From: Syntrophales bacterium
GTDB lineage: Bacteria > Desulfobacterota > Syntrophia > Syntrophales > PHBD01
Length of the DNA stretch: 64,000 bases
Assembly: GCA_963668175.1 (NCBI GenBank)
Contig: OY764159.1
Span: forward strand, 2,208,001 to 2,272,000
Direction of reading: 5' to 3'
Shown here: piece by piece, positions 16,536 through 50,597 of the stretch
Numbering within the stretch: the first letter of the stretch is position 1
How the letters are laid out: each line of letters opens with the position of its first letter
Translations under genes and position numbers: made by a program
Notes under the pieces: model-generated
The model's database searches: none
What the model was told of the DNA's origin: nothing
Seen by the model: only the letters and a program-made list of their open reading frames with translations

Positions 16536-16556
16536 GCCGTCCTGCTCCTCTCCTTA

Positions 16557-16698
16557 CGGGACATTGAAAAACGCCCATCTGTGGCGTTGTTTATCACCTT
16601 CAGGTGACGCAACAAGCCTCGTCATTCAACATACGTCTATGTATGCCTCATTCCTCAGCTGTTGCACGCCTTGCATCCGGGCATTTTTGAACGGCCCG
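16557..16698. mobile_element. MITE-like palindromic repeat, copy A
   Basis: Imperfect terminal inverted repeats CGGG.C.TTGAAAAACGCCC and GGGCATTTTTGAACGGCCCG; core GCCTCGTCA...ATGCCTCATT...GCCTT.CATC.GG.CATTTTTGAA is shared with 48108-48354 and 50369-50597. Confidence 0.8.
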
Positions 16699-48107: not shown

Positions 48108-48354
48108 AGCAGGCCGCGCTCCTGCGCAGGAGGCCAGCCTCGTCAATCGGCATCATTCTGCATATGCCTCATTATCACTGTGCCCCGCAGGGGGGCTTTT
48201 GCGCGTCCCCTAAAGGGGATAAACCCCCTAAAGGGGATAAACCCCCTGAAGGGGGCAAGGTCACCTAAAGGTGACAAGCCTTGCATCCGGACATTTTTGA
48301 ACCCCCCATTCGGGGGGCGCGGCAGCCTGTTTGAAATCGAGTATTTCAACAAGC
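48108..48354. mobile_element. MITE-like repeat, copy C, interrupted by about 7 short hairpin insertions
   Basis: Core blocks of copies A and B are present but split by TCCCCTAAAGGGGATAAA-type and CCCCCCATTCGGGGGGCGCGG-type units. Confidence 0.8.
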
Positions 48355-50368: not shown

Positions 50369-50597
50369 CAGGCTGTTGCTAATGTTAGGCGCGTTGCAAT
50401 GAGGGACCGCAACGCTTACACCGCCACATCTGTCGTTTATCACCTTCAGGTGACGTTGCGCTGCTGCGCCCCCTGCATAGGGGGCAAGCCTCGTCAATCG
50501 ACATACTCCTATGTATGCCTCATTCCTCGGCTTTCGCGCGCCTTACATCTGGACATTTTTGAACAGCCTGTTCAGAATCGAGTTTTTCAGCAATCTG
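50369..50597. mobile_element. MITE-like repeat, copy B, with 2-3 hairpin insertions
   Basis: CAGGCTGTT and AACAGCCTG inverted ends; core shared with copies A and C. Confidence 0.8.

Follow-up and report, generated by a model that had tools for sequence, protein, structure and literature searches.

The window analysed here is a stretch of 64,000 nt (G000:C1:2208001-2272000) from the single-contig, 4.57-Mb genome of a Syntrophales bacterium (55.8% G+C, 100% complete). Three copies of a long palindromic repeat (A, B and C) lie in it, and each contains units of 18-21 nt, made of a hairpin with a short tail at the foot. A first-pass annotation had proposed that these units were inserted independently into a MITE family and moved by an HUH transposase (IS200/IS605 TnpA or RAYT). 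The question is whether the units were inserted, at which points, and by what. The units are a new family of REP/SDR-like mini-elements. That they are small, non-autonomous mobile insertions of the REP/SDR kind is the reading that we favour and consider fairly probable.

The genome was searched by blastn with the three window copies. Thirty-six clusters were obtained, about 32 of which were copies or fragments of one repeat; copy A was homologous to about 30 copies across the genome. The terminal inverted repeats of full-length copies are CAGGCTGTTGAAAAAC (5') and GTTTTTCAACAAGCTG (3'). The 4 nt flanking both ends were identical in five of ten full-length copies (TTAA twice, TTTA, TTAG and ATAA) and differed by 1-2 nt in the remaining five. 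Three of the five identical flanks are non-palindromic direct repeats, and these look like a 4-nt target duplication of the host repeat. A core of roughly 125 nt was found in 24 of the 41 genomes searched, the present one included, and in all eight genomes of the same family; this hairpin core is spread across the order. The 20 host copies examined from other genomes were all without units. When 17 copies were aligned, a long hairpin emerged, with changes on both sides in 20 of its 40 pairs. The predicted RNA fold favours the bottom strand (-60.3 vs -42.9 kcal/mol), where many G-U pairs are formed. 'MITE' seems a fair label, and the element would also be a strand-specific structured repeat.

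The host repeat was rejected as an Rfam family, no curated covariance model matching it. No match to it was obtained within the window at gathering score, nor at E-values up to 0.1 in the host loci of four relatives, and copy B gave one chance match (E 0.52). A profile search of the genome with DDE_Tnp_1 (PF01609) gave no match, and no autonomous IS with the ends of the host repeat was found in the genome. The sole multicopy IS found is a 1.33-kb element with an rve-type transposase (ORF of 298 aa), present in six copies that are 99-100% identical (genome positions 525479, 1667359, 2116953, 2148822, 2403647 and 2742207). It was rejected as the source of the host repeat or of the units, since its ends are unrelated to both.

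Table 1. Host copies and units in the window, followed by the insertion sites S1 to S11 of the host repeat (^, insertion point; empty copies, number of copies, empty at the site, that support the insertion)
Feature	Position	Strand	Description	Site	Empty copies
Host MITE copy A	16554..16697	+	5' inverted repeat and long hairpin core; without 3' extension		
Class-1 unit, copy A	16590..16607	+	18-nt insertion, TTTA+TCACC-TTCA-GGTGA	S4 (CGYGTTG^CG)	8 (3 from other genera)
Host MITE copy C	48110..48354	+	5'-truncated; units make up more than half its length		
Unit, copy C	48115..48132	+	CGCG+CTCCTGCGCAGGAG	S1 (CAGGC^)	
Class-3-like unit, copy C	48178..48195	+	CTGTG+CCCCGCAGGGGGG	S6, before GCTTTTGCGCG	
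Four-unit class-1 array, copy C	48206..48278	-	Head to tail; tails of the members read on the minus strand	S7	
Array member 1	48206-48223	-	Tail TTTA	S7	
Array member 2	48224-48241	-	Tail TTTA	S7	
Array member 3	48242-48259	-	Tail CTTG	S7	
Array member 4	48261-48278	-	Tail CTTG	S7	
Class-3 unit, copy C	48302..48322	-	21 nt, CCGCG+CCCCCCGAATGGGGGG	S8	6
Host MITE copy B	50369..50597	+	Full length, both inverted repeats		
Replacement of AAAAA of the 5' inverted repeat, copy B	50379-50421		43 nt with a different hairpin (GCGTTGC...GCAACGC)	S2 region	
Class-1 unit, copy B	50436..50453	+	TTTATCACCTTCAGGTGA	S3 (CTGTCG^CG)	8
Class-2 unit, copy B	50464..50484	+	21 nt, CTGCG+CCCCCTGCATAGGGGG	S5 (GCGCTG^CAAGCC)	9
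Insertion site			Class 3	S1, CAGGC^TGTTGAAAAACG	
Insertion site			Further 18-nt class, CCGATATCGTAAGATATT, 3 copies	S2, AAAAACGC^CCATCTG	
Insertion site			Class 1	S3, CTGTYG^CG	
Insertion site			Class 1	S4, CGYGTTG^CG	
Insertion site			Class 2	S4', TTGCG^TTGCG	
Insertion site			Class 2, 21 nt	S5, GCGCTG^CAAGCC	
Insertion site			Class 3, 21 nt	S6, CCTCG^GCTTTTGCG	
Insertion site			Class 1, reversed	S7, TTTTGCGCG^CCTTACATCTGG	
Insertion site			Class 1 (CTTG tail), reversed	S8, TTTTTGAA^CAGCCTG	
Insertion site			Class 2 (CATG tail), reversed	S9, TTTTTGAACA^GCCTG	
Insertion site			Class 2	S10, CAGCCTG^TTCAAAATCG	
Insertion site			Class 3	S11, equivalent point in the 3' inverted repeat	

Units of all classes consist of a tail of 4-5 nt and a perfect hairpin of 14-16 nt, 18-21 nt in total. 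Class-1 units have a YTTR tail and a 14-nt hairpin, a rule that holds for 31/31 units; class-2 and class-3 units have a YRYG or CTGCG tail and a 16-nt hairpin. The tails seen were TTTA, CTTG, CGYG, CATG and CTGCG. When the genome was scanned with the class-1 pattern YTTRYCMCCTNNAGGKGR, 31 matches were obtained and none with the same pattern written backwards. The class-2 hairpin CCCCCTGCATAGGGGG, at most one mismatch being allowed, gave 35 matches (control 0). The commonest perfect hairpins of the genome are unit hairpins: CCCCCTATGCAGGGGG occurs in 15 copies and its reverse complement in 13, and TCACCTTCAGGTGA in 7 + 6 copies. One 16-mer has 28 exact copies genome-wide. Among hairpins with a CCCC or CACC stem, 64 of 165 sit in about 30 repeat loci. 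The stems co-vary, as had been noted from the window, and they do so in other genomes as well (TAACC/GGTTA, CCACC/GGTGG and TACCC/GGGTA around an invariant CC-TTCA-GG).

Further short units were observed. At S2, the host copies at genome positions 2870617, 3183166 and 2542469 carry a fourth 18-nt class, whose stem is A+T (CCGATATCGTAAGATATT, with variants), and the 43-nt replacement in copy B looks like another kind of insert in that region. Outside the window, two paralogous intergenic regions (genome 2142741-2142775 and 2144989-2145060) contain two and four tandem copies, respectively, of the 19-nt hairpin GTCCCCCGCATGGGGGAAA. The tail variants CGCG, CGTG, CATG, CACG and TGCG of classes 2 and 3 differ solely by transitions at CpG, the pattern expected from cytosine-methylation decay. 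A CRISPR origin was rejected; all that the array scan gave was a pair of overlapping short-period repeat runs near 4.048 Mb, and the 20-mers of these have no relation to the units.

Filled and empty sites were compared by aligning 32 host loci pairwise, together with 16 unit-free copies from other genera. Sixty-one supported insertion calls were obtained. Class-1 inserts were 18 nt long and those of classes 2 and 3 were 20-21 nt long; the other lengths (36, 41, 44 and 55 nt) were sums of these. At S3, S4, S7, S8, S9 and S10 and in RHS genes, the filled sequence minus the empty one was exactly the unit, so no target site is duplicated. The empty state is the older one, since the unit-free copies from other genera serve as an outgroup for many of the calls. 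Empty alleles thus exist, and removal of the units restores the MITE core as the first-pass annotation had claimed. Its coordinates also hold, including those of its second class (48114-48132, 48178-48195 and 48302-48322). The 20-bp variant that it placed at 50469-50488 is present, but the alignment puts the insert at 50464-50484, with a length of 21 nt. In other host copies, S1 is filled by CGCG/CACG+CCCCCCGCATGGGGGG, S6 by a homologous 21-nt unit (copy at genome position 2064650, supported by nine empty copies), and S7 either by the first unit alone (supported by 13-18 empty copies) or by two units. The units are insertions of quantised size, placed without duplication and with a site bias.

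Short G+C-rich hairpins can disturb sequencing, and an assembly artefact in repeats was considered for this reason; no support for it was found. The genome is one 4.57-Mb contig, the same units are present in independent assemblies of other species, the inserts have exact lengths and reading frames are kept. We give an artefact practically no credence.

The bias was strong, for both the site and the orientation. Several motifs are used (CTGTYG^CG, GTTG^CG, AAGG^CG, CAGSCTG^TTCAAAA and CAGGC^TGTT), some sites are mirror images on the two arms of the host palindrome (S3~S7, S1~S9~S11 and S8~S10), and the units always point the same way with respect to the local motif. All sites fall in hairpin loops, internal loops or junctions of the predicted fold, although this could reflect the survival of tolerated insertions and not a targeting mechanism. 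Read tail-first, class-1 units are preceded by G in 26/31 cases and followed by CG in 16/31. No single short target word was found 5' of the units, the G being all that these left flanks share. All ten copies of the exact 18-mer TTTATCACCTTCAGGTGA lie between G and CG; the two in copies A and B, which the first-pass annotation had pointed out, are 5 nt apart on the host. At S10, the 16-nt hairpin is invariant in eight of nine fills, and the 20-nt right flank averages 74% pairwise identity: the unit hairpins are more uniform than the surrounding host.

Not every filled site records a separate event. The same pair of S6 and S7 fills is common to seven host copies, which implies that the host multiplied after acquiring them. 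The copy at genome position 2820842, with an empty S4, and that at 2224560 (window copy A), with a filled S4, have private core variants in common. The exact 18-mer was found at five different sites at least (S3, S4, to the left of the S6 fill, to the left of the S10 fill and beside other units), and the class-2 hairpin at S4', S5, S9 and S10 as well as within RHS genes and at free intergenic positions. Independent insertion, as first proposed, is borne out by these non-homologous positions, but many copies are shared by descent. A manual tally, not a computed figure, gives roughly 30 separate insertion events by site and variant. A metagenome scan with a neighbouring protein gave no conspecific filled or empty loci; the best matches among the accessible records were 60% identical over most of the length or 75% over a fragment.

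The arrays raise another explanation, namely that units and arrays are replication errors produced by slippage or template switching in quasi-palindromes, without transposition. Template switching yields perfectly complementary arms without selection. Tandem arrays are present, with four units in copy C and two against four copies of the 19-nt hairpin, and the second unit of the copy C array has the arms of two variants (CCCCC/GGGGA), as misalignment with a neighbour predicts. Slippage cannot, however, put one 18-mer at unrelated sites, and it leaves the 28 exact copies of a 16-mer unexplained. Adjacent members of the array are different variants, not duplicates. Mirror copying between the arms of the host palindrome was rejected as well, because the two arms hold different unit variants at mirror sites. 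Replication errors are very unlikely to be the origin of the units.

Units were also found outside the host repeat, in genes and in intergenic sites. Seven paralogous RHS/YD core ends were compared: four read FY-CAPCIGG-RARYYDP and three read FYRARYYDP, the empty form. The extra 21 nt are a class-2 unit (CTGCG + hairpin, the same 21-mer as in copy B at S5) inserted in frame as seven codons. These core ends lie in one cluster outside the window (L122, genome 2080300-2089500), where they lead into differing C-terminal tips with small ORFs downstream, the arrangement of an orphan toxin-tip array. Free intergenic copies are present at genome positions 2371584 and 2851446, with two tandem units at the latter. 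The length-variable linker of an alpha-2-macroglobulin gene contains an in-frame class-1 copy, the boundaries of which cannot be fixed with the orthologues (46-55% identity).

The distribution of the units among genomes is patchy: they are present here, related ones occur in other Syntrophales-type genomes, and the eight genomes of the same family have none. Neither unit pattern had a match in eight same-family genomes, though all eight have the host repeat. Among 301 genomes of the order, hairpin fills at S8/S9 were found in the present genome alone, with two weak candidates elsewhere (G081 and G045). An exact scan for the 18-mer followed by CG, with one genome per species, gave 13 loci; in 11 of them, the unit belongs to a host repeat from another delta-proteobacterial or Smithella-type assembly. 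Five unit-bearing genomes contain 6, 13, 21, 3 and 3 units (control matches 0). Their tails are CGCG, CTTG, TTTA or CGAG, and their stems TAACC/GGTTA, CCACC/GGTGG, TCACC/GGTGA or TACCC/GGGTA around the invariant CC-TTCA-GG. In 20 sister-genome regions, many units carry 10-nt repeats on the left (CGCGTCACCT) and 8-nt repeats on the right (TCAGGTTA). These units appear to have been inserted one inside the loop of another at CCT^TCAGG, the left side gaining 10 nt and the right side 8 nt per level; the repeat counts are balanced in three regions (L109, L115 and L117) and unbalanced in two (L108 and L113). Host repeats of other species contain further inserts: two (L060 and L064) have a roughly 100-nt insert of the 3' arm in common, and hairpin inserts are present in L058 (CCCCGGCCTTCGCCGGGG) and L061 (CCCCGTGTCCAGCACGGGG).

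These comparisons bear on the possibility that the units are not mobile but are old functional modules (for example protein-binding or RNA hairpins) that selection maintains and that gene conversion, recombination and deletion reshuffle among copies, in the manner of BIME motifs or pneumococcal boxB modules. In all 11 host repeats of other species, the exact 18-mer is at S3 despite strongly diverged host ends. Two of these loci (L054 and L055) are an orthologous site in two species, between two tRNA genes, where the unit is identical and the host core differs at several positions. Because the 18-mer is conserved at S3 from genus to genus, a selected module stays under consideration. It is joined by the CC-TTCA-GG core, invariant while the outer stem co-varies, by the covariation-supported host fold, by the one-strand G-U pairs and the difference in folding energy, which suggest a transcribed and selected structure, and by the S6 and S7 fills common to seven copies, hence inherited. 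Against this, an identical unit is found at no fewer than five non-homologous host positions, in RHS coding sequence and in free intergenic DNA, so that homologous exchange cannot be the source. Nor do the lack of units in eight same-family genomes that all have the host repeat and the self-nesting in sister genomes fit with static modules. We regard this explanation as unlikely, and mobile insertion is kept as the preferred reading below.

The mobilising enzyme was searched for in the complete genome. No match was obtained with the Y1_Tnp profile (PF01797), for which the control was positive in six of 14 genomes, nor with the TnpB, IS110 DEDD and RVT_1 profiles. The control of the Y2_Tnp profile was silent everywhere, and this search is hence uninformative. 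The best tblastn match of the genome with two Syntrophales Y1 proteins had an E-value of 0.27, which is at chance level, and the search for IS200-like remnants (hairpins H2, H3 and LE) gave chance matches only. The HUH/Y1 mobiliser put forward by the first-pass annotation was not found in this genome. The Y1 domain was detected in 64 of 81 genomes of the order (at least 95% complete) and in three of the five unit-bearing genomes tested.

It had also been suggested that a Y1/RAYT gene flanked by the same hairpins should be looked for. In relatives, no palindromic CC-TTCA-GG unit was present within about 1.5 kb of the 20 long RAYT-like Y1 loci, but in 8 of the 31 IS200-like loci examined an identical 14-nt hairpin comes right behind the stop codon of tnpA. 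These eight are all the members of one family with the 3' end in view, and their TnpA proteins are 68-91% identical. The hairpin, (A)ACCACCTT[C/T]AGGTGGTT with the 14-mer CCACCTT[C/T]AGGTGG, is the 14-mer of the CGCG-CCACC units and has the same TTCA/TTTA loop polymorphism. The left-end hairpin (LE) of this family resembles the third 3' hairpin H3 (CCTCCGGCTTTGCCGGAGG) and not the unit-like H1, so its transposase may not recognise the units; the hairpins that this transposase most likely binds differ from them. CCCCC...GGGGG hairpins are present 3' of tnpA in other IS200-like elements of the order too. The post-tnpA 14-nt hairpin is the only link found between the units and a transposase.

The absence of the enzyme from the genome implies that it was lost, is supplied in trans or is of an unrecognised kind. 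If the units are mobile in the REP/SDR manner, a Y1 enzyme might have been their past or external mobiliser, a possibility that we take seriously but consider less likely than not. An RNA route is unlikely, since no RVT_1 reverse transcriptase was found. Precise junctions, the lack of duplications, fixed orientation, loop targets and self-nesting fit with a mechanism in which one folded DNA strand is cut and rejoined. We infer that units would be inserted by this route, HUH/Y1 chemistry being the leading candidate. The targets would be single-stranded loops and internal loops of the older palindromic MITE, points within other units or adjoining them and, now and then, tolerant gene positions. 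Pasting would be precise and would duplicate no target, the local sequence setting a fixed orientation, and units once inserted would be carried along as the host MITE multiplies.

A bolder version would be a long-lived, order-wide system that writes exact cassettes of 18-21 nt into loops of folded strands (MITE loops, the unit's own tetraloop and tolerant gene positions) by means of an enzyme that is neither Y1/RAYT nor a reverse transcriptase. The candidates would be a host-encoded or otherwise unrecognised single-strand nuclease-ligase. We find this version rather doubtful; if true, few mobile DNA elements would be as small as these units, and none before them would have had its structural target mapped.

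We know of no account of how the smallest bacterial repeats (REPs without RAYT, cyanobacterial SDRs) move. The closest likeness is to the small dispersed repeats SDR1-8 of Nostoc and relatives, reportedly described by Elhai and colleagues in 2008 (Genome Res 18:1484) as 21-27 nt long, and for which an RNA route is said to have been proposed. Like the SDRs as they are reported, the units are very short hairpins with compensatory stem changes, are embedded in mini-transposons, nest in their own copies, have short tandem repeat flanks, belong to one coherent lineage and lack an identified mobilising enzyme. The features said to define SDRs (a hairpin of at most 30 nt, compensatory changes, location in MITEs and self-nesting) were all observed, the self-nesting in sister genomes. 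The units differ in size (18-21 nt), in phylum and probably in sequence. Beyond what is reported of SDRs, insertion points could here be assigned to loops of a host fold that covariation supports, and RHS genes contain one unit in frame.

Elements of the IS200/IS605 family transpose as single strands by 'peel and paste'. The units resemble them in the lack of target duplication, in orientation-specific insertion and in a hairpin with a short, guide-like 5' tail. They differ in having one hairpin in place of a left and a right end and, it seems, no single 5' target word of 4-5 nt. Moreover, the unit-like H1 differs from the LE/H3 pair presumably bound by the transposase, and the genome has no tnpA.

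Modular mosaic repeats include the BIMEs of E. coli, pneumococcal BOX (boxA-boxB(n)-boxC) and ERIC with site-specific internal insertions. As in these, an old interspersed palindromic repeat carries optional internal modules in variable number; unlike in these, the module occupies several different positions of the host and is also found away from it. Rickettsia palindromic elements, of about 100-150 bp, are likewise inserted in frame into protein-coding genes, the insert in the present case being 21 nt (seven codons). ERIC is among the repeats listed in the accessible part of one article (PMC3184786), and RPE-4 and RPE-6 are discussed in that of another (PMC3733652).

The accessible part of the latter article describes tagged REPs of the GTAG and CGTC super-families, 20-40 bp long with a short unpaired tag at the foot of the hairpin, the CGTC super-family having no dedicated transposase; some families sit inside longer palindromes, and intragenic in-frame copies occur (Di Nocera et al. 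2013, PMC3733652). On that description, the units are similar in the tag at one foot of a G+C-rich hairpin, the location inside longer palindromes and the in-frame genic copies. They are different in their tails (TTTA/CTTG or CGYG/CTGCG), which fit neither GTAG nor CGTC, and shorter (18-21 nt vs 20-40 bp). REPINs are presented, in the part of the text available, as inverted doublets paired with RAYT transposases (Bertels and Rainey 2011, PMC3116915). Compared with what is described there, the units are mostly single or in head-to-tail arrays and not inverted doublets. Unlike in REP/RAYT systems, the genome has no RAYT, and none of the 20 RAYT-like loci of relatives is flanked by units. No description of these repeats was found in the accessible portions of the literature on Syntrophus/Smithella MITEs or REPs.

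Filled and empty sites with exact junctions occur naturally here by the dozen, and every insertion point maps to a loop of the covariation-supported host fold. Because Y1, TnpB, IS110 and reverse transcriptase are all lacking and sister genomes differ sharply in their unit loads, the mobilising activity can be searched for by phyletic profiling, and it is testable with short oligonucleotides. Such units change the structure of intergenic RNA, lengthen proteins by 6-7 codons and confound repeat annotation. Along the chromosome, 28 of the 32 host-repeat loci lie, in mixed orientations, within 1.32-2.87 Mb (34% of the genome). By GC skew (origin at about 0.56 Mb, terminus at about 2.89 Mb), this interval is the terminus-proximal part of one replichore.
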